Made by a program: the position numbers and the translations under genes. From Bdellovibrionota bacterium (GTDB lineage Bacteria; Bdellovibrionota_C; UBA2361; OMII01): 64,000 nt of DNA. Numbering within the stretch: position 1 is the first letter of the stretch; each line of letters opens with the position of its first letter. The notes under the pieces are model-generated. The model was not told where the DNA came from. It was given only the letters and a program-made list of their open reading frames with translations, and ran no database searches. The stretch is from positions 64,001 through 128,000 of the forward strand of contig JBIJBE010000002.1 of assembly GCA_044345405.1 (NCBI GenBank), read 5' to 3'. Positions 49,524 through 64,000 of the stretch are shown here, piece after piece.

Positions 49524-51542
49524 ATGGCTGATACGCGGGCAATCACTAGGGTCCTGATCGCAAATCGCGGCGAGATCGCGCGAAGGATCGTTCGCACCTG
49601 CACTCGTCTTGGAATCGAGACCGTCGCGGTGTACACCGATGTCGACGCTCATGCGCCGCATGTTCGTGAAGCGACCTTTTCTGAAGCTCTCGGCACACCA
49701 GAGTCATACCTCTCGATTGAGAAGATCCTCGAAGCAGCGAAGCGCTCCAAGGCCGATAGCGTCCACCCCGGTTACGGCTTCCTCTCCGAGAACCCCGACT
49801 TCGCCGCCGCCGTGCGAGACACCGGACTCACCTGGATCGGCCCTACAAGCGAAACAATCCGGAAGCTCGGAAGCAAGACCGCGGCGAAAGAGTTGGCTCG
49901 CCAGGCAAACGCCCCAACATCTCCAACACTCATTCTCCCCCCTGGCTCCACCGCCGACCGCGCGAGCGCCATAGCGAAATTCGGCGAGTCCGTTGGGTTC
50001 CCACTAATCTTAAAAGCGGCAGCGGGAGGTGGAGGTCGCGGCATGCGCTTCATCAATCCCGAGAGCGACATCGCCATGGAGCTCGACAGCGCGCAGCGAG
50101 AATCGCTCAAAGCGTTCGGAAGCGATGAGGTCTTCGTTGAGAAGTGCATCACCCCCGCTCGGCACATCGAGGTGCAGATCGTAGGTGACACACACGGGAA
50201 CGTGGTGGCACTGGGGACTCGCGATTGCTCGCTGCAACGAAGTAATCAAAAGATCATCGAGGAGGCACCGGCCGTACATCTCGCACCGGGAAGCGAAGCG
50301 AAACTCCTTGAGGCGGCGACGAACCTCGCTCGCGCGGCCGGATACACAAGCCTCGGCACCGTTGAGTTCCTCTACGGGCAAGATGGGTCACCCTATTTTC
50401 TTGAGGTAAACACACGACTTCAGGTTGAGCATCCCGTCACAGAACTCGTCACTGGGCTCGACCTCGTGGAGCTTCAGCTCCGCATCGCAGCCGGCGAGAC
50501 CCTCGCGGCGTGCGGCGTCACCCACACACCGGAACCACAGGGGCACGCCATCGAGGCGCGATGGTGCGCTGAGGAGTTCACCGACCGATTCACCACAGCG
50601 ACCGGCATCGTGCTCGATATCGAGGTACCGCAGCCAGCGGCCCGCGGCACGATGGTGCGTGTCGATAGGGGCGTTGAGCCGTGCTCGGAGGTTACCCACT
50701 ACTACGATTCACTCATCGGGAAAGTTATTGTCTACGCCCCCTCACGAGATCGCGCGATTGAGGCGCTCGATGACGTGCTCTCACGTTCCCGACTCAGTGG
50801 CGTTCGAAACAATCGCAACCTCCTCTTGCATCTCCTTCGAACGCCAGAGTTTAAGGCGCTTCAGCACACCGTACAGGGAACGAAGCTCCTGCTCCCTTCA
50901 AGTGAGCAAAACTCAGCGATCGTTCGTGAGGCGCACGTTATCGCGGCGGCGGTTCGATGCGCGACACCAAACTCCGCGTGGGCGTCGCAGGGACCATGGT
51001 CCTCGACGACAGCGCCCGATGCACACATCTCCTATCCATGGACAACGAGCGAGCACGGGAACGCTCTCTCAAGCACAACGAGACAAGACGGAAATTCATT
51101 CGTCGTGTCGGTAGACGGGCATTCCGAAACCATTACTTTCACGGAAGGGCCATTCCTGAACGGACTCGGCACCACAGCGACCCTTTCTCTCAACGGAGGA
51201 GCACCAAGCTCCGTATCGCTCTACCGCGACGGAAATGACCTCTGGGTTCATTCGAACCGAGGAACGGTCGTGCTCCACCAACCAGCGATCGGCGAACGCT
51301 CAGGCGGTGCCGGTAGTAGCTCAGCAAACGAGATCCGCTCAACGATCCCCGGTAAGGTCGCCGCGGTTCTCGTCAAAGAGGGAGATACCGTCGAGCAAGG
51401 AGCTACCCTGCTCGTGCTTGACTCTATGAAGATGGAGCATCCGATTCGCGCGACGATGAATGGAAAGGTGGCAAGCTTGCCGCTGCAGGTCGGCACGATC
51501 GTACACGCGGGAGCCCTGCTCGTGTCGCTAGAACCACATTAA
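49524..51542 (+). CDS. mccA: Methylcrotonyl-CoA-type carboxylase alpha subunit (biotin carboxylase plus biotinyl domain)
   Basis: IANRGEIA, HPGYGFLSEN, GGGGRGMR, EVNTRLQVEHPVTE, biotin motif DSMKME. Confidence 0.9.
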   Translation: MADTRAITRVLIANRGEIARRIVRTCTRLGIETVAVYTDVDAHAPHVREATFSEALGTPESYLSIEKILEAAKRSKADSVHPGYGFLSENPDFAAAVRDTGLTWIGPTSETIRKLGSKTAAKELARQANAPTSPTLILPPGSTADRASAIAKFGESVGFPLILKAAAGGGGRGMRFINPESDIAMELDSAQRESLKAFGSDEVFVEKCITPARHIEVQIVGDTHGNVVALGTRDCSLQRSNQKIIEEAPAVHLAPGSEAKLLEAATNLARAAGYTSLGTVEFLYGQDGSPYFLEVNTRLQVEHPVTELVTGLDLVELQLRIAAGETLAACGVTHTPEPQGHAIEARWCAEEFTDRFTTATGIVLDIEVPQPAARGTMVRVDRGVEPCSEVTHYYDSLIGKVIVYAPSRDRAIEALDDVLSRSRLSGVRNNRNLLLHLLRTPEFKALQHTVQGTKLLLPSSEQNSAIVREAHVIAAAVRCATPNSAWASQGPWSSTTAPDAHISYPWTTSEHGNALSSTTRQDGNSFVVSVDGHSETITFTEGPFLNGLGTTATLSLNGGAPSSVSLYRDGNDLWVHSNRGTVVLHQPAIGERSGGAGSSSANEIRSTIPGKVAAVLVKEGDTVEQGATLLVLDSMKMEHPIRATMNGKVASLPLQVGTIVHAGALLVSLEPH

Positions 51543-51563
51543 ACAACCTATGAATTGATAATT

Positions 51564-52209
51564 ATGAAGCTCGGAACAATCAGCATTGTACTCGTGCTCC
51601 CGGCTCTACTTGGTGCGCTTGCGTGGCATTCTTATGTTCTATTTCTCTATCGGGTTGCCTATCGGTTGGCTTGGGTTGAAGAGAATCTTATCCTCTCGGG
51701 AATCCTCGGTTGTACCTATCTCTTCCTAGGCCTCTGCGCCCTTGCACTCACGAGCTATTACGCGGTCCGCACAGCATCTAAGTGGCTAATCGTGAAGATG
51801 GGGCTGTCAGCACTACTCACACTATGCTCGGTCGCATCGTTTTTTGTAGGCGCGTACCTTGGCGAGCTCTGGGCCGTTACTGGCGCCAAATCATATTTGG
51901 ACGGCGTTGTTCGCTCCGCTAATGACTATCTGCAAAAAAAATGGGGAATATCCCGAGTCCTTAGATAAGCTCGACCTCCCTGCGATGCCGCGCTTAATAA
52001 TGGAATCAGCAGACAGCAACAAAAAGCAAGAGCACAAGTCTTTCACTGTGCCGTACCAACGAATTGATGGTCGATCAATCATAGTGGGCTTCGAATACAG
52101 GAAGGGTTTCAGCAACGACGACTGCGCAAGTTATAAATGGACCACAAATAACCCGAGGTGGGTGTGCACATGCCACGGCTGTCTTACCGACAATCCGAAT
52201 CGACGATAA
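51564..52209 (+). pseudogene. Membrane protein gene split by a frameshift in an A8 run (or a sequencing indel)
   Basis: Removing one A from 51934-51941 joins ORFs 51564-51968 and 51859-52209 into ...ANDYLQKNGEYPESLDKL... Confidence 0.65.
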
Positions 52210-52276
52210 GCTCTCTGGCAATAACCCCATCCCGGGATCTGGATTCAGGTTGCCTCGATAAACCGCGGCAAGGCGA

Positions 52277-52645
52277 TCACTGGTAGATCGTTTCCTTCAG
52301 CCGCTTCAACAACATCAACATAAAGCCAGATGAACAGAGGTGAGGAAAGAAGCTTTGATTGAGCTTTTCAGCGTTGACTGCCACGGCAACAAGCTTAGTG
52401 ACGGTCGCCGCATCTGCTGAAAGGATCTTCTCCGGAGACTGAAGAAAGGGCCTCAGCTCCTCAATCCAGCCCATCCAATCAACATCCTCGGAGCACAGAC
52501 CGCTCCCCTTAATGCACTCTTGCAGATCTCTCACCTGCGGAGAGTATTCACCGGTAGTGATATACACTGAATGTGCGTCACGTAATCCGTCAGTCTCAAG
52601 GAGTGGAATAAAATCGAATAATCGCGTCAACGCCGCCTCGTCCAT
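52277..52645 (-). CDS. Hypothetical protein (DUF6508-like, tentative)
   Basis: ATG at 52645; DW..W...ILSAD...LV pattern; the longer ORF-track start lies inside the duplicated fragment. Confidence 0.6.
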   Translation of the reverse strand: MDEAALTRLFDFIPLLETDGLRDAHSVYITTGEYSPQVRDLQECIKGSGLCSEDVDWMGWIEELRPFLQSPEKILSADAATVTKLVAVAVNAEKLNQSFFPHLCSSGFMLMLLKRLKETIYQ

Positions 52646-52739
52646 TTTCTCGGTATACCACACGAGAGCGTGTTCGACTATGACACAGAGAAGCCTTCCT
52701 TGCCCCTGAGCAGACCGCGGGCGACGTGAGAGGTGAAAA

Positions 52740-52920
52740 TCACCGAGCGTCGTTACAGAGGTCAGTAAGGAGCGATACAACGTTAGCGTTAAACTCGCGT
52801 TGATTCCGCAACGCTGGACCGAACACGGCGTTGATGACCGGTTGAAGCATCCGCTTACCGAACACGATAAACGGCCCAATGATCTTACGGTGCGAGGTCG
52901 GAGTCTGGGGCCGAACATCG
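52740..52920 (-). repeat. Orphan 3' fragment of the gene at 62902-63315 (left att-like direct repeat)
   Basis: 181 bp matching 62902-63082; 52864-52920 is identical to 63026-63082; encodes DVRPQTPTSHRKIIGPFIVFGKR...LTDLCNDAR*. Confidence 0.93.
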
Positions 52921-53173
52921 AAGGACCTCCCGCATCGCCTTTATAAGCGCACAGGAGGGAAGATCATCGAAGCGTAGAGTCGCTGATTCCAACCCCTGCC
53001 CCACAGCGCATACTCGGGATCTGCCGAGGAATTCTCAAAAGACACGCCTGCTGCGGCGGAGTCGATTTTTCGAACACTCCAAGAGGCTGGGAGGCGGTAC
53101 CCGATATACATACAGGAAGAATAAAGAAACCGCCGCCCTACTCATCCCTACCTCAGGGCTCATCCCTGGCGCA

Positions 53174-54175
53174 TCACCGCCGCGCAACGGCCCTCTCGAT
53201 TGGATAGAAGGAGAACGAGTATTCCTTTAAAACTGCAATCACCGCCCAGTCCCTAAGGACGTGCCCGAATGCCTCTTGCAGCGAATCGGTAAGCTCTCCT
53301 ATCTGCTCGGGGCTCTCCACTTCACAACGCATGATATAGTCCCAGACACCGACGAGTCGCATCATACTCACAATCGAACGCTGCTGTTGGCACCATCGCA
53401 AGATACTCTTGTGCATCTCAGCAGAGAGTGTATTGCTTGCAATCTGAATTCGGTATACTTGCATGCCAAGGCGAGCCGGCGAGACGAGATACGGAAAACC
53501 TGTTATAACCCCACTCTTAGTCAAAGCCTGTATTCGATAACCAATAGTAGACGAAGGGAGTCCGGTAGCGGAGCTTATATTTCTTAGCGATTCCGCGCCG
53601 CGACCACCTAATACTCGCAATATAGCGTGGTCGACCTCGTCGATGCTGACGATCCCAGACCCCGGCAGCGCCTCAAATCTTCGGCTATGCTTCACGCCCT
53701 CCGGGGCGAGGTATTTCCTCCCGAACCACCAGTATCCGATCGAGAGGCACGAATCTCTCGTATCGAACATGCCCGGCGCGCGAGCGTCGAGCTCCTCTAG
53801 GCGCCGAGCCACGTCAAGCGTATTCATCGCCTCAATACCGATATGATAGTCATACTTACCGGCCGTGCGATAAAACCATCTGATCCCGGGGGATTCCGTC
53901 ACAGCCTGGGTAAGTCTTGCGCTGAGACTCTTTTTATCCTTCGCTGGAGAGAAGAAAACCTCAAGCTCGGTCGCCCCGAGCCGGTAGGTGTCGACAAAGA
54001 CAGCCTGCGAGACAAGCCCCTCCTTGGCCCAACGGCTCATCTTCCCCTGGAGAGCGCTCTCTTTTATCCCTAGAGATTTTGCGAGCGAGCTCAACGGCTC
54101 GTTACCATGGAACTGAAGCGAGTACAGCAGGAACTTGTCTACATCTGAAATTTTTTGAATTTGTTGTCTTTTCAA
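53174..54175 (-). CDS. Tandem (double) Lrp/AsnC-like transcriptional regulator
   Basis: Two wHTH plus RAM-like halves: DKFLL...SLAKSLGI and DEVDHAIL...ISSATGLPSSTIGYRIQALTKSGVI; GKYDY and GVWDY motifs. Confidence 0.8.
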   Translation of the reverse strand: MKRQQIQKISDVDKFLLYSLQFHGNEPLSSLAKSLGIKESALQGKMSRWAKEGLVSQAVFVDTYRLGATELEVFFSPAKDKKSLSARLTQAVTESPGIRWFYRTAGKYDYHIGIEAMNTLDVARRLEELDARAPGMFDTRDSCLSIGYWWFGRKYLAPEGVKHSRRFEALPGSGIVSIDEVDHAILRVLGGRGAESLRNISSATGLPSSTIGYRIQALTKSGVITGFPYLVSPARLGMQVYRIQIASNTLSAEMHKSILRWCQQQRSIVSMMRLVGVWDYIMRCEVESPEQIGELTDSLQEAFGHVLRDWAVIAVLKEYSFSFYPIERAVARR

Positions 54176-54279
54176 TCGACTCTCTACTTACAAAAGACGT
54201 CAATAACTAGCGCTCTAAACTAAAAACCGAAGCCCGACAAGAATAAAGGATGCCAGAGGATTTGTTATAAAACCGATAC

Positions 54280-54320
54280 GAGAGAGAAGAAGGGAAGTGA
54301 ACCCCATGGCTCACTTCCCT
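54280..54320 (-). terminator. Probable terminator after csrA
   Basis: Perfect 10-bp stem agggaagtga / tcacttccct (54291-54320) followed on the minus strand by a pyrimidine tract. Confidence 0.6.
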
Positions 54321-54325
54321 GCTGG

Positions 54326-54493
54326 CTACCGTCCTGCGTCAGGGCGCGTTCTGGTCTCCTGCCTGAAAACTGGAACATTCCTTGGCGCTTCGATTCCAAG
54401 TTTAACCCTTCCGCGTTCAATTTCTAACACGGTAATTTTGATGGAATCACCAATGACTATTACCTGATCACTACGCCGCGCAAGAACCAACAT
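54326..54493 (-). CDS. csrA: Carbon storage regulator CsrA/RsmA
   Basis: MLVLARR..Q.IVIGDSIKITVLEI..GRVKLGIEAPRNVPVFRQE; start ATG 54493. Confidence 0.93.
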   Translation of the reverse strand: MLVLARRSDQVIVIGDSIKITVLEIERGRVKLGIEAPRNVPVFRQETRTRPDAGR

Positions 54494-54510
54494 TAGACTA
54501 TTCTCCCAAA

Positions 54511-54655
54511 AAAACTTCAAAGGCCCTCTGAGAAACCGTCGTCCCTCCTCTGGCATAAGAGTCAGAGCGACATACCGTTAGAGATAGAGAAAGTACAACC
54601 GTCAGTCAAACGACATGAACGGTGACCAACAATCGGCTCGAATATTGGACAAATA
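54511..54655 (-). promoter_or_regulatory. Conserved csrA upstream module, copy 1
   Basis: Palindrome TGACCAA-N15-TTGGACA (54623-54651), TTGACT-17-TATCTC (54609 to 54581), leader core 54524-54566. Confidence 0.75.
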
Positions 54656-54717
54656 CAGAGGCCTCGCCAACGAATATCTCAGGAGAGTGCGTAGCGAGAA
54701 TAAACGTAAATCAGACA

Positions 54718-56958
54718 TCACTCAATTCTCTCCGCCACCCAGTTGTACTCAAACACGCCACTCCGAGAACTAGATGAGCCGGTGACAACGGTTTTTCCAG
54801 ACAGCGCAGAGCCGTCCGCGGACAGAACTGCAGAGCTACTCAGAGTGGCTCCGTTGATGGACTTCGCAAGCAAGTTTACGTCAAAGCCGTGTTCCCGAGG
54901 CGTAACCGAGACCGATTCAAAGTGAGTAAAGAGAACCTCGCCGCTCAACCCCGATATACCCGTTACGCCAACCAGAGTGATAGAAGAGCCAATGAATCCT
55001 CTTTGGCTCTCGTCGAATATGAAATAACCCTCCCCCTCGGCGGGCGCCGTAAGGGACCATTTCCAAACCCCGGCCAAGTGAGAAGGAGTTGATGCGGAAT
55101 TGGACTTGCCGGCTGATAGCGGAGGATTCTGCTGCGGACCGGCGTCGACACGCGGAGTATCTGCTTGCTCCATCAACGGCTGGAGTGGTTCTGCCACAGT
55201 ATTCTCGAGCCAGTCGACTGAGCTGTAGGTTCTTAACTGACCGTCCACTAATCGCTCAAACCCTTTCGTCGCTACCAGCGCCCCCGGTTCGGTCTTATCC
55301 GCAATGTAAAACAGGGCGGTGACTGAAACATCAGAGAGTCGCCGCACCTCGCCTTCTTGCGACACGCCATCTCTATTCGCGTCGAACCACAGGCCCAATT
55401 TGTCGAGTTCGATGCCGTCTATCTTTCCATTTCTATCAGTGTCCATGGTCGCGAGCGCTTCGTACCCATCTTTCCACGGAATGGCGGTGTGTTGGTTGTC
55501 CGAAGCGGGCTGCTTTCCGCCGAAGGTCCAACTGCCGAATAGCTGTTCGGCCGAGGTGATTGAACCGGTGTGTTCAGCGTCAAAAACAAGGACAGGGAGA
55601 GACGCTGAACCTCTCCACAACCACGTATCCTGCTTCGAGTGAGGGTTAAGCTTGAATGACACCATCGTGCTCGGAAGCAGAGAGTAGTCACCAGCCCATA
55701 CCAGGGAGATCGGCGTAGCCATTTCAGCGTAGTAAGAGATAGATCCGCACGACATTTTGTCGGGCGTGATCGTCGAGACTGGAATCAGCTTGCAATTTTG
55801 ATCAATGTAGAGAGAGCCCGCCTTACACCCCGGCTCTTTGTCCTCTTTCGAGCCTCCCCCGATCTGTGCCTCACCTGCATGACCCAGGGAGTTCGCGGCA
55901 CCGTAACCTCCGAGGCAGTTGATGTACTGTTTATTTTGCTCGTAACTGTCTCTTGTCCGCTCGTTCTTCTCGAGAAGGTGTATCCAGAGGTAGCTGGTAA
56001 AGCACGTGGCGTACTTCTCCATCATTTCCTTGCCGGCCAGATCTACGCCCTTGGCCTGGGTGTATCCGAAATCTTGGTTATGACAGGTCTCGAACGCTTT
56101 TCTAGCAACGTCTTCGAAACACTGCAATGATTGCGCGCCCTCACTTGGTGATATCTTCAGATCTCCCAACTTGTGCGTGCTTCCGTGCTTGAAATTAAGT
56201 CCGTAGTAGCTGCAACTAGGGGTTGGAGTAGCCGTGCTTGTCGCCGTCGCCGTTCGAGTGGGTGTGAGCGTCGGAGTCCGGGTAGGAGTTCTCGTAGGCG
56301 TCGCCGTTCGAGTGGGCGTAAGCGTCGGAGTCCGGGTAGGAGTTCTCGTAGGCGTCGCCGTTCGAGTGGGTGTAAGCGTCGGAGTCCGGGTAGGAGTTCT
56401 CGTAGGCGTCGCTGTTCGAGTGGGTGTAAGCGTCGGAGTCCGGGTAGGAGTTCTCGTAGGCGTCGCTGTTCTAGTTGGGGTAGGCGTCGAGGTTGGTGTT
56501 TTCGTCCCCGAGCATCCGACTCTTCGGAGGTAGTTCAAGATGACTGCAGAATCGAGGGGCGTTACACTGCCATCCCGGTTTACGTCTAAAGCTCTCGAAC
56601 TTTCACTAACGGGGCCTGGCCCCTTCTTGATGAGAAACAGGTCGATCGCTTGAGCGTCCGTTTCATTAACCACGCAATCCTGATTGACATCATAGGTTGA
56701 TAAGACTCTGTCGCCGTTACAATCCAGCGGCGCGCAAGGCTTCGCTGTCGCCGAGCGGGTAGGAGTTGGGTCGAGCCGTGAGGGCGCATCCTCTGGGCTG
56801 CGAACGACCGGCGAGGCGTTACAAACCCAAGTCACGGGGTATGATACGGCCAAAAGACACGCGATCCCTAGGGCGCACAGGCGACTGCTGCAATAAAGAA
56901 CAACATTGGCGACCGCACCGATTAAGCCTTCAGCGAAGTCGTTCAGCTTGATCACCAT
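54718..56958 (-). CDS. Secreted protein with dockerin-like EF-hand pair, Pro/Thr linker and Ca-binding-loop C-terminal domain
   Basis: [12 protein letters not shown] and [12 protein letters not shown] dockerin-type loops; TPISLVW...EQLFG...[18 protein letters not shown]...[15 protein letters not shown] pattern seen in large secreted RTX-associated proteins. Confidence 0.75.
56245..56471. repeat. 54-bp coding tandem repeat, four copies plus a partial
   Basis: Units start at 56245, 56299, 56353 and 56407; encode [18 protein letters not shown]. Confidence 0.95.
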
Positions 56959-57559
56959 CCCCTATTCTCCTCTAAGGCGTATAGCAGCCAAGGATCCCTC
57001 GTGCACCTCCCTAAACATCACGGAAGAAGAATGCAAAAAACTTCCGAAAACCATCCGCGACCAGAGGGAACGGCAAATGCCGGGCGGTGGCCACGGCACC
57101 ACAAAATACGCGAGTCGGCTCGCCCTCCCGATGCTAGCCATACCATACTAACTGTTGGGGGCTGTCGTCCGTTCTCGGACGAAACTTTACGTTTACAGCC
57201 AGTTTTGAGAAAGACCAAAAAATAGGAAGATTTCGGGTGCAAGAATGGGTAATGCGAAGGCACCGAACACATGGTCACCTTGTTTCAGCACCATACATCC
57301 TCAGGGAACCTTGCCTGCGGACTACGTTCATACCAGTGAGAGTAGCGGGCTTCCTTACCCAGGTTTCTCAGGGCTTTGAGAACGATCCCAGTGGGCAAGG
57401 TCATGCTGGAGGGGATTCCGAACGACTTTGCCCTTTACCGCGGTCAAACTAGCGGCGGCGGTCGCTTCTTGTGAGGGAAGGTATTTAAAGAGCTGTGGAT
57501 TAAGGGCGGTGCGTTAGCACTAGGTATTTGATCAGTCCGCCTGGTGTTCATGCGCCGGA

Positions 57560-58232
57560 AACACGAAAGCCCTCAGTGATTGTGGAGTTCAGACCGGAGC
57601 GGTCTTGAATGGACTGCCGGTCTCTGACGTGAAAGCGCTAACTGAACTGTCAGTTAACTGTTAATGCGCGTCACTTCCTTGGCTGGTAGAGCTGGGTTCG
57701 TCAGCCGCTGCCTCGCACCAGAAAACTGACCTTGCCATCAAAAGAGCCCCTTACCAGTTTGCCCAGGGCCGGCAATGCCCCTCAAAGATCCCGGTGTCGG
57801 CGCTGATCGGGTTTGTGGCTCTCGACGGAACGCTTTCCGCCAAACTGGAGGAGGGGGTGACGGTATACTGCGATGTCCTTGAGGAACTCAGAAACCATAC
57901 TCGCCGCACTAACGCGAACCTCAGTGTCTATTCTTGTTGGACATCCAAGTGAGCGCTGCGCAACTAACGCGGTACAAAATGAATCAAACTCCGAAAGCCA
58001 TTTGGAGGCAGATACTTCCGCTAATAACAAGGGGTCGAGCACCGAAAGTTCGATTGCAACGAACGACTGCTGGCACTCCTTGACAAGACTGGCCTGCGAC
58101 AAACCCGACACTCCATCGTCTTGCGTTATCAATCACGGCGAACACTCGGATAGCTCTGCCGTCGATGTTCCGGTGCTATTTTTTGGGGGCAGCAGAACAG
58201 GCGCCTCCGATCTTCAACACAAACCGCTCACT
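57560..58232 (-). pseudogene. Decayed paralog of the double Lrp/AsnC regulator
   Basis: Collinear fragments ERFVL...PKKIA, GLSQASLV...IELSV, EVRVSAASMVSEFLKDI, FGGK, ALP, SGLNSTI resemble DKFLL...PLSSLA, GLVSQAVFV...TELEV, GIEAMNTLDVARRLEEL, FGRK, EALP, TGLPSSTI of 53174-54175; several stops and frameshifts. Confidence 0.5.
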
Positions 58233-58301
58233 TCTTATTAAATCAGCTATCAGGATTACGTCGCCAGCTTTTCGGTTCAGACCTAATAGTCCTATTTTCA
58301 T
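58233..58301 (-). pseudogene. Truncated csrA remnant (copy 2)
   Basis: LLGLNRKAGDVILIADLIR aligns to the CsrA N-terminus MLVLARRSDQVIVIGDSIK, at the same position relative to the upstream module. Confidence 0.6.
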
Positions 58302-58307
58302 CCTCAC

Positions 58308-58452
58308 AAACACTCGAAAACCCTCTGAGAACCGTAATCCCTCCTCTTGCATAAGAGTCAGACCGACACACAACTTGGAGCTAGAGAAACCCAAGATCTC
58401 TCGCAAACTACGTAAAGTGCATACAACTAATAGCCCGAACATCGGTCAAACG
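58308..58452 (-). promoter_or_regulatory. Conserved csrA upstream module, copy 2
   Basis: ccctctgagaaccgtaatccctcctcttgcataagagtcaga (58321-58362), TTGCGA-17-TAGCTC, degraded palindrome. Confidence 0.75.
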
Positions 58453-58513
58453 TGAGTCAGGACCAAACCCGAGCGGAACTCCCAGGAGCACCCCCCTCAG
58501 TTTGACAGGGGCA

Positions 58514-61500
58514 CTAAGAACACTGACTGTTAAAGCGAGGAAGCTGCGTTGATACCTCCAGAGTTCGATTATACAAGGTTGTTCCCGTGGCAGCACGGGC
58601 CGCATCGCTTGAACTAAGGCTACGGCGCCGTGCTTTCTTAAGTGTCGACGCCGCTCGCTTCGTGAGGCGGTGAAGCTGCTTCGCGCGACCGGTTATCTCA
58701 GTGATATTTGATGAAGTCTGAATGGCCGCGCATCCAACGCATGATTTAGTCACCAGCGGGAAGCTCGACCATATGCTTTTCCATTGCGCAAGGTAGAGGT
58801 CCTGGGCCTCCTCCTCGTATGAAGCAGCGAGGTCCAAAAAGGTTGACGCGTTCGATACGCGTCTGATGCGACTCGCTAAATAGCGCACGGCAGACCGCTG
58901 TCGCGAGGCGAGATTATCGAGCTGTGACAACGTATCTTTGTTGTCGGCTTCGTTACACGAGATCTCTTCAACGGTACATCGCTGAGTCTGCGCCGAGGCC
59001 TCGACGGCGGCACTACCTAATGTCCACGTGATCACACTCGACGAGCTGGTGTTGTCACTTTCCGGAGTCGCGAAAGGGACAACCATCGTGAAGACATTAC
59101 TAAACGCGCCTCGAAAGAAGGTCGTCGGTTGACCCGGATTCGCCACGCCTGGATCCACGGAATTCCGCGGGCCATAAGGAATTGCAACAGAGGATAGTTC
59201 ATCACTCCTGTAACCGAAGTGTGCTAACAGGCTCCCGTCTTGCAGGACATCCACACACTCGGCAATCGGTGTTACCTTGTATTGTGTGTCAGTTTGAGTC
59301 TCTGTTGCTGACGTTGTCGCCGTAGGCGTCGGTGTCTTTGTCAGCGCTATGACCTCGCATGTTGCCGACGGTGTCGCCGTGGGTGTCGGTGTCTTCGTCG
59401 GCATTATGACCTCGCATGTTGCTGAAGGTGTCGCCGTAGGTGTCGGTGTCTTTGTCGGCACCACCTCGTCGCACTCGACATTGTCTTTTGGTGAGGAACA
59501 TCCCGGATCCAATCCATCAATCAGACCATCTCTGTCGTCATCAACGCCGTTCTGACATTGAGAGGTGCCATCAGCCTCATTAGTATCTTGAGAACTTGAG
59601 CATCCTGGGTCAGCCAAATCGATAAGGCCGTCTCGATCATCGTCCGTACCGTTTTGGCACTGAGAGGTTCCGTCACCCTCATTATTGTCTTGAGGGCTTG
59701 AGCATCCTGGGTCAGCCAAATCGATAAGACCATCTCGATCATCGTCCGTACCGTTCTGACACTGAGCAACTGGCGATGCCTCGTCGCTATCATCAGGTCC
59801 ACTACAAGCGAAGTCCTGCAGGTCGATCGCACCGTCTCTGTCGTTGTCCACACCATCCGAGCACTGACTCGCAATTTGGAAGCGATACGCGACCTTTGCG
59901 GCCTGCCACGGACCCTTCTGGCCACCTTGCCCGATTCCTCGTACGAACCACTGGTACTGCCCTCGCGGCAAAACCGTTGTTGGCGTGTAAGAAGTTGACG
60001 TCAGGCTTGCCTGCCTAATGACCACCTGGCCGTTCGCGGGGGAGATTTGTCTAACCACGATCTCGTAAGTTTTTGCCCCGGCAGCGGCCTTCCAGCGAAA
60101 AGCTACTTCAGGAGCTGAAATTACTCCGTTCTGAGGAGGGAATACCTGCGTTGGTAAGCCGATAGGTTGCGCACGAGCCTCGTTGTTGAGGGTACGGTCG
60201 TATGTCGCACTGCTCGTGAGGTCACGCCAGCATCCGGGGTCGGACGCGTCCGTCACTCCGTCAGAATCGTTATCCGAGCCATCCTGACACTGTGAGGTGC
60301 CATCAGCCTCATTAGTATCTTGGGGACTTGAGCATCCTGGGTCAGCTATATCGACAAGGCCATCTCGATCATCGTCCGTACCGTTCTGACACTGAGCAAC
60401 TGGTGATGCCTCGTCATTATCATCAGCTCCACTACAAGAGAAGTCCTGCAGGTCGATTACACCGTCACCATCATTGTCTAATCCGTCCGAGCACTGGCTT
60501 GCAATTTGGAAGGTAAACGCGACATTTTCGGACTGCCAAGGACCTTTCTGGCCGGCTTGACGGACTGCTCGTACAAACCATTGGTACCTCCCCCGCGGCA
60601 AAGATACCAGTGGCTTGTAAAACGTCGAGGTTATGTTTGCCGTTCTTATGACCTCCTGGTTTGCTTGAGGAGAGACCTGTCTGACCGAGACCTCATAAGA
60701 TTGCGCTCTAGCAACAGCCTTCCAGCGGAAAGCTAATTCGGGCGCCGTAATCACAGCGTTCCGAGGTGGAAACACCTGGGTTGGTATCCCTAGTTCTGGT
60801 TGCGAGCGAGCTTCGTTGTTGAGGGTACGATCGTAGGTCGAGCTGTTCCCGACGTCACGCCAGCACCCAGGATCTGCCGCATCGACCACTCCGTCGAGGT
60901 CGTTATCTGAGCCATCCTGACACTGAGAGGTTAGTAGACCTTCGTCGTTTAGGTTGGGGTCATATGAGCTAGGGTTTTCAGGGTTAGCCCAGCATCCGGG
61001 GTCATATCGGTCAGACAGGCGATCCCCATCGTTATCGAGACCATCGTCGCATTCCGTCCCACCTGAGCACAGATACGAGAAGTAAGCGTTTACACATCCA
61101 TTATTAAAGCCAAGAACCGCCTGGCCGGTGGTGGGATCATACAAAGCTCCCTGGATGCTCGTGGAACTGCACTTAGAAGAGAACGTGTTAGTACCGGCGG
61201 CACACCTTCGATTTCTTCCGATAGTTTGACTTCCAGACGCTTGAGTTGATTTGAAAGAAGTTAGATGAGCGGTCGTCGCTGTTCCCGGCTGGGCGCATAT
61301 ATATCCACATTCCGAGATTCGGCCAGCTCCGCTTTGGGACGCGGTAATAACCCCATCCTCCCTGTTGTAGGAACATTCTACCGTTCCAGTACCGGCGCCG
61401 CCCTGTCTGACCTTTTGGAAATTTGCCACACTGACGACGCAAGTGAGACCAGCACCAATTGAAGTACCAGAGGAAACATATCCTGCCGTAAATTTTTGAC

Positions 61501-61825
61501 TTGCTCCTCGAGAATTATGGCACACATATACGCCCTTTCCGTCGGCGTATCGATTGCTGGCAATGGAGACACGGTTATTAGCAAGGCGTACCTGGAAGAA
61601 CGGCTCCTGATTCGCGGAGTTGTCGGATCGAACCCAAAGATAATTCCCCACAGAGGTAAAGCACTGGTCATAACCATCAGTGGACACGCTTTCTGTTGCC
61701 GAGATGTAGCCCATCTTAACGCCGCTATCCCGATATATCTCCTGGGCATTGATAACCGCCCCCCCAAGGAAGACTGACAAAAGTGAACAGAGCGTTGCGA
61801 TTCGAAGAGATAATCTTGTTTTCAT
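58514..61825 (-). CDS. Large secreted Cys/Asp-repeat surface protein with two FN3/Ig-like domains
   Basis: Signal peptide; about nine C.[DN]G.D[ND]D.DG..D..D..C repeats; duplicated PTQVFPP...FRWKA...YQWFVR domains; PT linkers; C-terminal helical region with CxxC. Confidence 0.82.
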   Translation of the reverse strand: MKTRLSLRIATLCSLLSVFLGGAVINAQEIYRDSGVKMGYISATESVSTDGYDQCFTSVGNYLWVRSDNSANQEPFFQVRLANNRVSIASNRYADGKGVYVCHNSRGASQKFTAGYVSSGTSIGAGLTCVVSVANFQKVRQGGAGTGTVECSYNREDGVITASQSGAGRISECGYICAQPGTATTAHLTSFKSTQASGSQTIGRNRRCAAGTNTFSSKCSSTSIQGALYDPTTGQAVLGFNNGCVNAYFSYLCSGGTECDDGLDNDGDRLSDRYDPGCWANPENPSSYDPNLNDEGLLTSQCQDGSDNDLDGVVDAADPGCWRDVGNSSTYDRTLNNEARSQPELGIPTQVFPPRNAVITAPELAFRWKAVARAQSYEVSVRQVSPQANQEVIRTANITSTFYKPLVSLPRGRYQWFVRAVRQAGQKGPWQSENVAFTFQIASQCSDGLDNDGDGVIDLQDFSCSGADDNDEASPVAQCQNGTDDDRDGLVDIADPGCSSPQDTNEADGTSQCQDGSDNDSDGVTDASDPGCWRDLTSSATYDRTLNNEARAQPIGLPTQVFPPQNGVISAPEVAFRWKAAAGAKTYEIVVRQISPANGQVVIRQASLTSTSYTPTTVLPRGQYQWFVRGIGQGGQKGPWQAAKVAYRFQIASQCSDGVDNDRDGAIDLQDFACSGPDDSDEASPVAQCQNGTDDDRDGLIDLADPGCSSPQDNNEGDGTSQCQNGTDDDRDGLIDLADPGCSSSQDTNEADGTSQCQNGVDDDRDGLIDGLDPGCSSPKDNVECDEVVPTKTPTPTATPSATCEVIMPTKTPTPTATPSATCEVIALTKTPTPTATTSATETQTDTQYKVTPIAECVDVLQDGSLLAHFGYRSDELSSVAIPYGPRNSVDPGVANPGQPTTFFRGAFSNVFTMVVPFATPESDNTSSSSVITWTLGSAAVEASAQTQRCTVEEISCNEADNKDTLSQLDNLASRQRSAVRYLASRIRRVSNASTFLDLAASYEEEAQDLYLAQWKSIWSSFPLVTKSCVGCAAIQTSSNITEITGRAKQLHRLTKRAASTLKKARRRSLSSSDAARAATGTTLYNRTLEVSTQLPRFNSQCS

Positions 61826-62126
61826 GACGATATTTGGACCTTTGTAGTCATCCTTTGCCGAGTTTCACTGTTTAGTGGCACCAATCTTTCTTAAGAAGGT
61901 CGACAAGTCGTTAACCCGACCTTCCCACACACCTTCCGTAAAACCCGCCAATCCCTTCTCCGTTGTTCGGCACATCGACATATGAGGGGCTCCGGGCCCA
62001 GCTACACGCCGATTCCCTTGAGAGACGAAAGAACGAAGCATTCTGGAGGACCTGCTCAAACAACCTTTTTTTGAGACTCAAAGGGAACGCACACCCGTGC
62101 CCCCCGCTGCTAGCTGACGTCCCCAG

Positions 62127-62280
62127 TCAGAAGTCCTTTTCCCCCTGCCTGACCACGGGAACATTCCCTTGGGCTCTGGATGCCCAATTACATTCTGTCG
62201 CCCTTGACGTTTAAAACCGTAACTCCGACGCTTCAACGAACAAGAATTGCCTCATCATGTTTCCGGGCTATCGCCAATCT
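62127..62280 (-). pseudogene. Full-length csrA pseudogene (copy 3)
   Basis: LAIARKHDEAILVR*SVGVTVLNVKGDRM*LGIQSPR(+1)NVPVVRQGE: two in-frame stops, one frameshift, no ATG at the expected start. Confidence 0.85.
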
Positions 62281-62296
62281 GTGCGCACTCTTCTTA

Positions 62297-62442
62297 AAAA
62301 CGTCAAAAGCCCTCTGAGAAACCGTCGTCCCATCTCCGGCATAAGAGTTGAATCGACCTACAGAACGGAATTATAGAAAACAAAAATCTCTGTCAAACGA
62401 CGTAAGGTGTGACCAATTAACGGCACGGATCTTGGTCAAAAT
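62297..62442 (-). promoter_or_regulatory. Conserved csrA upstream module, copy 3
   Basis: Perfect TGACCAA-N15-TTGGTCA (62410-62438), TTGACA-15-TATAAT (62396 to 62370), leader core 62310-62352. Confidence 0.78.
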
Positions 62443-62499
62443 AGTATTCCGCCCTCCCCACAGCGACTCGCGCATGAACAGTTGCGATTGGCTTCACAA

Positions 62500-62901
62500 A
62501 CTCAGTTTTTGGGTTCTATTTCGGTTACCATCACATCGTTACTCAGCAAGCACGAAACACTACCAACCCTTTTTCCCATCCACCGTGACGGATACGACCT
62601 CGGAATGCACTCCGAGCGAGGACCGGTAATTCTTAACAAAGCGACGACCGAGGAGCTCACGGGGGACGCGCAAGCGACACAGCGAACAAGATCCGATCCA
62701 CGCTCCCCGAGAAAGTTGCGGCGATGCTCGTTAATGCTGGAGATATCGTTGAACACTGCGCGATACTGCTCGTGCTCGACTCGATGAGGATGGAGTACCC
62801 GATTTGGACGTCGGTACGTGGGAAGATCTCGACTCGTTAAGCTTACACCTGGAACGGTCGTGCAAACGGGGTTGCCTCTTGAGGCAGTTGAACAGGAATA
62901 A
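62500..62901 (+). pseudogene. Decayed 3' fragment of mccA (biotinyl domain)
   Basis: HRDGYDLGMHSERGPVIL..(fs)ANKIRSTLPEKVAAMLVNAGDIVEHCAILLVLDSMRMEYPI..GK(fs)..GTVVQTG...EQE* aligns to the C-terminus of 49524-51542; left boundary approximate. Confidence 0.85.
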
Positions 62902-63315
62902 TTACCGCGAGTCGTTACTCAGGTCGGTCAACAGCGACACCACATTAGCGTTAAACTCACGCTGATTACGGAGCGCAGGACCAAACACCGCGTTAATAAC
63001 CGGTTGAAGCATTCGCTTCCCGAGAACGATAAACGGCCCAATGATCTTACGGTGCGAGGTCGGAGTCTGGGGCCGAACATCGGCGGAATAGATCTGACAG
63101 AGCCGTCTGAGAAGCTCAACTCGCTCTGGCGTCGCGGTGAATCCATCTCGGGTCACTGAGAATGAGAGCTGTGCGATATGGCGCTCATCCGCCTCGCTGA
63201 ACTTACCAGCGGCGCGCAGGTCGGCCACCCGTCGGGCGAGCGCATCGCGAACATCGGTGTTATTCTCCCCCGCGACGGAGAGCCAGTTTGACTGTGGTGA
63301 TGTAGGAGCTGCCAT
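62902..63315 (-). CDS. Hypothetical protein (integration target gene)
   Basis: 137 aa from ATG 63315, 13 bp after the upstream stop; TSHRKIIGPFIV...NQREFNA segment resembles helical regions of surface-polysaccharide methyl/glycosyltransferases. Confidence 0.75.
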   Translation of the reverse strand: MAAPTSPQSNWLSVAGENNTDVRDALARRVADLRAAGKFSEADERHIAQLSFSVTRDGFTATPERVELLRRLCQIYSADVRPQTPTSHRKIIGPFIVLGKRMLQPVINAVFGPALRNQREFNANVVSLLTDLSNDSR

Positions 63316-63328
63316 AGCGGCGAGCGTA

Positions 63329-64000
63329 TCACAAGAACCGGTGGCGATGAAGCTCCACAAAACGGAGGCGGTGGAACTCCTCCCTTTTGGTGATATATCC
63401 GGCATCTAGCCCCGCCATCGCGGATACCAACATCCCGGCCCCCTCAAGCAAACCAGCCCCCGTTTGGTAGATCCGGATACCATCAGCGAACACCACTTCC
63501 CCCCGCTTTACCGCCGGTAAGGAGTCCCATTGGGGCGCATCCTCAAGCTTTCGAAGGTACCGGACGCTCTCTTCCAGCGTCTTCCCGCGCGGGGCAACCA
63601 TAATCGCGTCAGGGGCGAATGCCGCCAGCTCCTCCCATGTGGTCGGCTTGCTGATTTCGCGCTGCTCCGAATTCATTGTGCGGCCCGACACAAGTCGAAT
63701 AATATCAGGGATCCAACATCCCGCGATCTCCAAGGGCTCAACGCTTGAGAGCACAACCGTTTTCTTGTTTCGCAACCGCTCGTAGAGGTTCCGCCCCCAA
63801 TCAAGGAGCTGCGATTTTAGGCGCTGCGCTCGATCACGTCCGGTTGGCCCCATGCCGATAAGCGTTCCCAGATCACCGTAGGCATCAAGGAGATCGTTAA
63901 GGCTCGCGATATCAACGGACTTTACCCGAACGTTCTTCATCCAGTGGTGCTGGAAATATTCCTGCGCAAACCCGCAGAAGTCGTCGGGGTTATCAGAAAC
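63329..64000 (-). CDS. ABC transporter substrate-binding protein, BtuF/Fe-siderophore (TroA-like) family, 5'-truncated by the window edge
   Basis: PL..AGCWIPDIIRLVSG, TWEELAAFAPD, WDSLPAVKRGEV..ADG; frame open to the window end. Confidence 0.75.
   Translation of the reverse strand, partial: VSDNPDDFCGFAQEYFQHHWMKNVRVKSVDIASLNDLLDAYGDLGTLIGMGPTGRDRAQRLKSQLLDWGRNLYERLRNKKTVVLSSVEPLEIAGCWIPDIIRLVSGRTMNSEQREISKPTTWEELAAFAPDAIMVAPRGKTLEESVRYLRKLEDAPQWDSLPAVKRGEVVFADGIRIYQTGAGLLEGAGMLVSAMAGLDAGYITKREEFHRLRFVELHRHRFL

Follow-up and report, generated by a model that had tools for sequence, protein, structure and literature searches.

How does a bacterial chromosome come to hold three copies of the front end of one regulatory gene, with a large, predicted secreted protein encoded between each copy and the next? 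The question is raised by a locus in a 64,000-nucleotide (nt) stretch of DNA from an uncultured freshwater member of the Bdellovibrionota (contig JBIJBE010000002.1, positions 64,001 to 128,000; 'the window', below, means this whole 64-kb stretch). At the locus, a csrA gene and a gene for a tandem Lrp/AsnC regulator stand at one end of an array in which a non-coding leader, the 'module', occurs three times. A first-pass annotation, made from the letters alone, took this for an undescribed cassette system for surface-protein variation, grown by repeated capture of cargo-plus-regulator units. We favor a more modest answer, to which we assign a probability of roughly 60%: a private, strain-variable islet without a recognized recombinase, built by recombination at a unit, H, that comprises the leader and csrA, and in which the redundant csrA copies are decaying. 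On present evidence it looks like a one-off islet rather than a recurrent cassette system.

The repeated unit

The array consists of the following features, in ascending order of coordinates. Here and below, everything is on the minus strand unless stated.

53174..54175, minus strand: tandem (fused double) Lrp/AsnC regulator, 333 amino acids (aa), single copy (Pfam, PDB, NCBIfam, ESM Atlas)
54291..54320, minus strand: terminator-like hairpin of 13 pairs, directly 3' of the csrA stop codon (hairpin/terminator scan)
54326..54493, minus strand: intact csrA, a third paralogue, 55 aa (Pfam CsrA, PF02599)
54494..54653, minus strand: module 1 (H1), leader of the intact csrA (repeat search, alignment, profile)
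54718..56958, minus strand: cargo 1, 746 aa, with a calcium-binding region (dockerin-like and EF-hand-like) and a C-terminal domain of which the genus has many copies
56959..58175, minus strand: about 1.2 kb without a recognizable gene, between the csrA stub and cargo 1 (Pfam, tblastn, hidden Markov model (HMM), DNA alignment)
58176..58450, minus strand: module 2 (H2, about 58450-58300) plus csrA stub, with a stop codon at 58176
58514..61825, minus strand: cargo 2, 1103 aa, with a signal-peptide-like N-terminus, nine acidic double-disulfide repeats and internal 630-nt repeats
62161..62440, minus strand: module 3 (H3, about 62440-62285) plus csrA pseudogene, with one TGA and one TAA

Read in the direction of transcription, the order is H3, cargo 2, H2, the 1.2-kb gap, cargo 1, H1, Lrp. 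The module is about 150 nt long, and its three diverged copies start at 54653, 58450 and 62440; they came out of the repeat search as families D6 and D9 and were then aligned. Any two copies are 70-74% identical, and 84 of the 152 ungapped columns (158 in all) are the same in all three. Searched with a profile of the module, the 3.59-Mb genome yields just these three matches, each with E <= 1e-45, the next best having E = 0.82; this is far beyond chance. The triplication of a non-coding module reported by the first-pass annotation is thus real, and so are the 746- and 1103-aa reading frames between the copies and the regular spacing of about 65 base pairs (bp) from the stop codon of a cargo gene to the next module, which measures 63 nt for module 1 and 62 nt for module 2. 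The label 'operator-promoter' that was attached to the module has fared less well. Module 1 contains an inverted repeat, a -35-like TTGACT and a conserved hairpin core, but a sigma-70 promoter scan called no site within any of the three modules. The -35-like TTGACA of the modules is a by-eye reading, as is the inverted repeat (TGACCAA-N14-TTGGTCA, 7 bp), which is perfect only in the dead copy 3.

Each module leads into csrA, in three states of preservation. The gene behind module 1 is intact: its product matches the Pfam CsrA model at 3.6e-21 (75.3 bits, cut-off 27), which places it in the CsrA/RsmA family. The longest open reading frame (ORF), starting at 54556, would encode 76 aa rather than 55. 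The protein falls below the equivalog cut-offs of TIGR00202 and NF002469 (63.2 and 64.1 bits, against 70.1 and 73), and is a divergent, short (55 aa) paralogue. By eye, counterparts of L2, L4, R6/R7 and the VxVxRxE segment, the residues associated with RNA binding in CsrA, can be seen in it. Behind module 3 there is, as annotated, a pseudogene (62277-62161): it still scores 31.9 bits with the CsrA HMM and carries two stop codons, TGA and TAA. The 'stub' behind module 2 stands on DNA resemblance over about its first 19 codons, where 30 of 57 nt match csrA without a gap, but not on protein evidence, since the CsrA HMM is blind to it. That level of identity is reached by 3 of 27,888 windows in the region: the query's own place and two others, not listed, that we take to be those of copies 2 and 3.

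Where does the repeated unit end? Local alignment among the three units revealed no significant homology either 5' of the modules or 3' of the csrA stop codon. A 64% identity in the stretch after csrA, obtained by global alignment, was rejected when local alignment scored below shuffled sequences, and we treat it as not shown. The annotation had also placed an Lrp remnant in the second copy (58452-57560), and this has to be given up. The best tblastn match to the protein or to any of four orthologues had E = 0.24; an HMM of the family, built from 21 sequences and run against pieces translated in six frames, gave a best E of 5; and local DNA alignment of the Lrp gene with the 1.2-kb gap scored below shuffles. 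Since homology stops at the start of the module and at the csrA stop codon, and no Lrp remnant is found, H consists of the leader and csrA only, and the Lrp gene is not part of the repeat.

An insertion that a co-occurring strain lacks

The array (52926-62578, about 10 kb) is an insertion between the gene o167 and the DUF6508/biotin carboxylase genes, and pieces of these neighbors are duplicated around it:

52738..52925, minus strand: left copy of direct repeat D3, an o167 3'-end fragment abutting DUF6508 (direct-repeat search)
62579..62804, plus strand: remnant of the biotin carboxylase 3' end, about 70% identical to 51220-51446 over 228 nt, forming the inner part of the right-hand target duplication
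62900..63087, minus strand: right copy of D3, the 3' end of intact o167 (direct-repeat search)

The D3 copies are 86% identical over 183 nt, and include a run of about 58 identical nt inside repeats that are otherwise 78-90% identical. A second pair of direct repeats thus encloses the layout H, cargo, H, cargo, H, Lrp. The carboxylase remnant cannot be traced to a donor, since its identity to all the relatives compared, the closest, G020, included, is 66-77%. The island has a G+C content of 53%, against 56-57% in the flanks.

The genes on either side are housekeeping genes: a carboxyltransferase and the biotin carboxylase on one side and, on the other, a periplasmic-binding-like ORF, YaeQ, an Mrp/ParA-type ATPase and a radical SAM protein. 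The biotin carboxylase is found in 33 of the 35 genomes of the genus (E <= 1e-150), and the DNA beside it was compared in seven relatives (G044, G011, G015, G010, G014, G013 and G024). In all of these except the last, the carboxylase is directly followed by o167, PBP203 and x311, with no match to any island gene; G044 alone has DUF6508 between carboxylase and o167. Of G024, 5.1 kb were compared, on which the carboxylase alone is seen. Because outgroups have carboxylase and o167 adjacent, the empty state is ancestral for the genus. In G020, whose carboxylase is 86% identical to that of the window, both contigs end at this very intergenic site. Their ends (L122:1-125 and L123:2886-3095) lie within 121-210 nt of it, and as the tails have no counterpart in the window, a different insertion may be present in G020.

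Lake-water metagenomes add the population view. Twenty runs contain at least 64% of the island's sampled words, and the contigs of four of them were examined against the window. Contigs identical to the window bridge csrA, module 1 and cargo 1 (54215-55390), and module 3, the carboxylase remnant and o167 (61860-63055 and 62206-62917), so the layout is not an artefact of one assembly. One contig of run X20, 2,074 nt long and about 3% different from the window, runs from 52815 straight on to 62978, skipping 10,162 nt, which is exactly the spacing of the D3 repeats. This empty allele has the left D3 repeat at offsets 1-77 and the right repeat from offset 78; only five letters are shared at the crossover point, though the run of about 58 identical nt lies nearby. 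A hybrid repeat of this kind has the pattern that a single crossover would leave, in either direction. Empty and filled alleles, then, co-exist in natural lake populations, and the expectation that the locus varies between strains is borne out by a co-occurring, approximately 97%-identical strain with an empty site.

Some smaller features of the site deserve mention. Between the stop codons of the carboxylase and DUF6508 genes there are about 734 nt (51543-52276), with a 137-aa ORF that has no Pfam match; the same interval is only 27 nt in G044. The empty-site strain has this stretch too, so it is a separate indel. The longest ORF for DUF6508 overlaps the 3' end of o167 by about 176 nt in another frame, both in the window (52738-52925) and in G044 (L069:2863-3038); the real start of DUF6508 is probably downstream of the o167 stop codon.

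A module found nowhere else

Were the module the joint of a recurrent cassette system, as first proposed, one would look for it at other boundaries and in other genomes. It was found in neither. BLASTN with the module found nothing in 40 relatives, and a sequence-only covariance model found no credible match in 34 congeners; its best value, E = 0.016 per genome, is taken as noise, given that 34 genomes were searched. The exact degenerate pattern of the core matched no metagenome contig and no viral contig. In everything searched, the module is private to its own genome, which is the very outcome that the annotation had named as fatal to its proposal. The collections searched hold one genome per species and may omit close kin of the window; recurrence at the level of strains was followed in the four lake runs.

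Nor did the searches link the islet to a known kind of mobile element. A Pfam scan, which took in the main ORFs between 52277 and 63940, two small ones in the 1.2-kb gap and a set of flanking genes, revealed no recombinase, integrase or transposase. An integron-like arrangement was not found, there being no adjacent recombinase among the scanned ORFs and no recurrence of the module at cassette boundaries elsewhere. Neither was anything seen of an integrative conjugative element, prophage or plasmid: the plasmid and phage collections match only the low-complexity acidic repeats of cargo 1.

Where the leader comes from

The genus has two conserved csrA genes. The first type encodes MLILTRKPGESLYIGD... 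(contig C22 of the same genome); the second (MLVLSR..., contig C45) sits between the genes for MazG and S-adenosylhomocysteine hydrolase. The island adds a third csrA, which is of the second type and is 48% identical to the C45 gene and at most 57% identical to any other. Of 16 leaders of the second type, 15 have a GGCGGAG-type motif in a pyrimidine/purine hairpin, 105-116 nt upstream of the start codon. The 7-bp helix around this motif pairs in 72% of cells, versus 54-60% when the partner is slid, a value reached by 1 of 500 shuffles; we regard this as moderate support for the helix. Modules 1 to 3 each carry a version of the hairpin, and the leader of congener G002 shares the 14-mer CTCTTATGCCAGAG with module 1. 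The resemblance suggests that the island leader descends from that of the genus's conserved second csrA gene.

The hairpin at the second csrA gene is itself a candidate for a new csrA leader motif (L093:9031-9102, on C45, plus 14 congener loci, L040-L061) and matches no Rfam family. Rfam gave no match with E <= 1 in three congener loci of the second csrA gene, and the Rfam 15 covariance models gave none in 50000-64000 of the window. By eye, the hairpin loop lacks the classical GGA-in-loop arrangement.

The tandem Lrp/AsnC regulator

The first-pass annotation saw an intact 'double-Lrp' regulator beyond csrA copy 1, and Pfam, PDB and NCBIfam matches confirm it. The protein has a RAM domain (AsnC_trans_reg) at residues 86-139 (5.5e-10) and an HTH_AsnC-type domain at 178-218 (2.7e-9), both over the cut-offs; NCBIfam matches, LysM-like, fall in two stretches; and Lrp/AsnC chains in the PDB match residues 175-299. 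Taken together, the order of the Pfam domains, the two NCBIfam stretches and the PDB matches indicate two fused Lrp/AsnC units. The protein is below every NCBIfam equivalog cut-off.

Its family is greatly expanded in the genus, being present in 34 of the 35 genomes with up to 18 matches in each. The window's own genome has nine, copies of about 330 aa on contigs C4, C18, C22, C40, C47, C50 (two), C60 and C85. A rule that such paralogues adjoin large secreted proteins was considered, and was not evident at these nine copies. The nearest relatives of the island regulator are about 50% identical to it, and neither csrA nor the module lies beside the closest ones (four genome loci and five metagenome loci).

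Elsewhere in the genus, the two kinds of gene do keep company. A tandem-Lrp gene lies within about 9 kb of csrA in 6 of the 20 csrA neighborhoods fetched (L081, L085, L090, L094, L098 and L099). This suggests a proximity in excess of what copy number alone would give; several genomes in the count are close kin, so the cases are not independent.

How the islet may have been built

If the islet arose as we propose, its working part would be the regulatory pair: the third csrA, with its own leader and terminator-like hairpin, and the tandem Lrp/AsnC gene, with its own upstream region. Module 1 would drive csrA, and probably autoregulate it. Each cargo gene would have arrived, or moved in, by single-crossover or unequal recombination at H, duplicating H in the process; afterwards a single csrA would have been kept, the remaining copies decaying into the pseudogene and the stub. 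Modules 2 and 3 would persist in front of the two secreted-protein genes, as upstream or 5'-untranslated DNA, whether or not they are still in use. Because diverged target duplicates flank the whole islet, the same signature of recombination appears one level up. That the array grew by capture at a shared module, as annotated, fits the layout; that the capture is the habit of a recurrent system does not fit the absence of such a system elsewhere.

Several observations pull the other way. If modules 2 and 3 were simply decaying, the one live copy should stand out, and it does not clearly do so. Private changes number 16, 24 and 20 in copies 1, 2 and 3 (1, 4 and 6 within the hairpin core), and the live module is not clearly slower to change than the dead ones. 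Conservation is highest in the 50-nt hairpin core, where 37 of 49 columns are invariant in all three copies. The leader has also been somewhat better preserved than csrA: between copies 1 and 3, 115 of 156 positions are identical in the module against 99 of 163 in csrA. The claim that the module stays recognizable where csrA has decayed is upheld to this extent; a second contrast, between the module and csrA pooled with the stretch beyond it (Fisher's test, p = 0.016), includes a post-csrA homology that was later not confirmed. Since the leader is better kept than the csrA pseudogene, there may be constraint or gene conversion acting on the 'dead' copies. The pattern fits mild constraint or patchy gene conversion, and is no proof that copies 2 and 3 function.

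The leaders show little sign of a working RNA. On folding, the three have no stability signal (z = +0.6 to +1.2), and the alifold covariation term is about zero; they hold 3, 3 and 2 GGA motifs where 1.7-2.3 would be expected, which is no enrichment. Neither the folding nor the motif counts speak for a leader RNA that is structured or binds CsrA. The direction and mechanism of the recombination, moreover, we infer from the layout only. And runs X15 and X20 share contigs that leave the reference at 54489, in codon 2 of csrA, and at 61021, inside cargo 2. The 30-mers of these loose ends occur neither in the window nor in the genome, and belong to a further genotype.

These last contigs bring us to the strongest competitor, which treats H not as a scar but as a working exchange handle. 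Circles of cargo plus H would loop out and integrate among co-occurring strains, forming a population-level array of secreted-protein cassettes, and the retained leaders would put every cargo under one intact CsrA. The alternation of H and cargo, with an equal 62-63-nt gap from each cargo stop codon to H, counts in favor of such a handle; the core is conserved in the dead copies; an empty-site strain co-occurs; two runs have alternative junctions, one of them exactly at the csrA start; and target repeats flank the whole islet, consistent with the same single-crossover mechanism. We nevertheless consider it unlikely. The module is missing from 34 congeners, and the core pattern from metagenome and viral contigs alike. 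No contig in the four lake runs joins one module to another, the only joint being the whole-island skip, and copies that are only 70-74% identical are poor substrates for homologous recombination. The leaders lack GGA enrichment and a fold signal, and relatives of the Lrp gene have no csrA alongside. The bolder form of the proposal, in which the csrA leader, or 5' unit, is a recombinase-free handle through which co-occurring strains gain, exchange or lose secreted-protein genes, each kept under the one CsrA (and Lrp) of the islet, strikes us as quite doubtful.

Two further explanations dispense with capture or with selection. Occasional gene conversion in short tracts, with the live copy as donor, might have kept the modules alike, with no selection, and no function of copies 2 and 3, required. 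Identity is indeed patchy: modules 1 and 2 agree at 84% of positions in a 70-nt core but at about 70% overall, and D3 likewise contains its identical run of about 58 nt. But no two copies have the same core, all three have private changes of their own, and the patchiness could equally reflect constraint on the RNA hairpin conserved at the genus's second csrA gene; we think conversion improbable as the full account. Equally improbable is plain tandem duplication, in situ, of a whole leader-csrA-Lrp-cargo unit followed by decay, which would explain why the three leader-csrA copies are one another's closest relatives and why the gene-free gap behind the stub of copy 2 has roughly the length of an Lrp gene with spacers, but which founders on the missing Lrp remnant, on cargo proteins that are mutually dissimilar and on homology that ends at the csrA stop codon.

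Cargo genes

The two proteins carried by the islet have no similarity to each other (tblastn, E <= 0.01), yet each is a member of a large family of paralogs. For cargo 1 it is the C-terminal domain that recurs: 31 of the 35 genomes of the genus have it, up to 19 times in a single genome, and the copy in G002 comes closest, at 70% identity. In the ESM Atlas, the best match to this C-terminus (score 0.78, SPM domain) is no more than a lead, and nothing here depends on it. Tandem repeats of 54 nt occupy 56219-56488 of the gene. Relatives of cargo 2 are found in 11 of the 35 genomes, and a paralogue on contig C44 of the same genome, 58-60% identical, is vertically inherited, its locus being syntenic with that of G010. 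The internal repeats of cargo 2, about 630 nt each and 75-81% identical, span 59497-60931, and three 57-nt tandem units lie at 59303-59473. Several loose ends of lake-run contigs fall inside the cargo-2 repeats (59581, 59743 and 60369); these may reflect variation in repeat number, or ambiguity of assembly. The 1.2-kb gap had no match in its own genome by tblastx.

Comparison with known systems

Autoregulation of csrA through its own leader is familiar from E. coli. The island csrA is likewise preceded by a conserved leader that contains GGA, one of them at the Shine-Dalgarno site. Unlike the E. coli case, GGA is not enriched here, and the by-eye absence of GGA from the hairpin loop sets the two apart as well.

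The tandem Lrp/AsnC protein of about 325 aa is a known architecture. ESM Atlas clusters, mostly archaeal, match the island protein with scores of 0.94-0.97, and each of its halves resembles archaeal Lrp/AsnC structures such as PH1519. It differs from the known members in lying below every NCBIfam equivalog cut-off and in belonging to a family so strongly expanded in one genus.

As a piece of inserted DNA, the islet is reminiscent of additive (Campbell-type) integration, or unequal crossing-over. Diverged direct target repeats flank it, and the empty-site strain carries the hybrid repeat expected from a single crossover. For the islet, neither a circular intermediate nor a route of transfer is known, and only five letters are shared at the crossover; it is therefore a mechanism that the islet suggests rather than demonstrates.

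What the islet offers is a worked example of how a regulatory pair and genes for surface or secreted proteins can gather at one chromosomal site without a recognized recombinase, and of how redundant copies of the regulator then decay. Should the alternative junctions prove to be other cargo joined at the csrA unit, it would become a real recombinase-free cassette system. The by-products are possibly worth more than the array: an unannotated leader hairpin at the second csrA gene, and an expansion of tandem-Lrp genes in an uncultured genus.

The closest parallels are accessory csrA genes. Extra copies on acquired DNA are well described, among them Legionella CsrT on integrative conjugative elements and the Rsm paralogues of Pseudomonas on plasmids, prophages and islands (PMC7366521); Legionella csrR is a further paralogue (PMC4471563). 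A narrow search of the literature on csrA paralogues and genomic islands found no pairing of csrA with an Lrp-type regulator, which is no proof of absence. As far as those accounts go, the likeness is that a csrA additional to the conserved chromosomal ones lies in strain-variable, acquired DNA and adjoins genes that it may regulate. The differences are in the company it keeps. Among the ORFs scanned here, no conjugation, phage or integrase gene is recognized; the partner is a tandem Lrp/AsnC protein; the front end of csrA is present three times over, with two copies dead; and the host, instead of a Legionella or a Pseudomonas, is an uncultured bacterium of fresh water.

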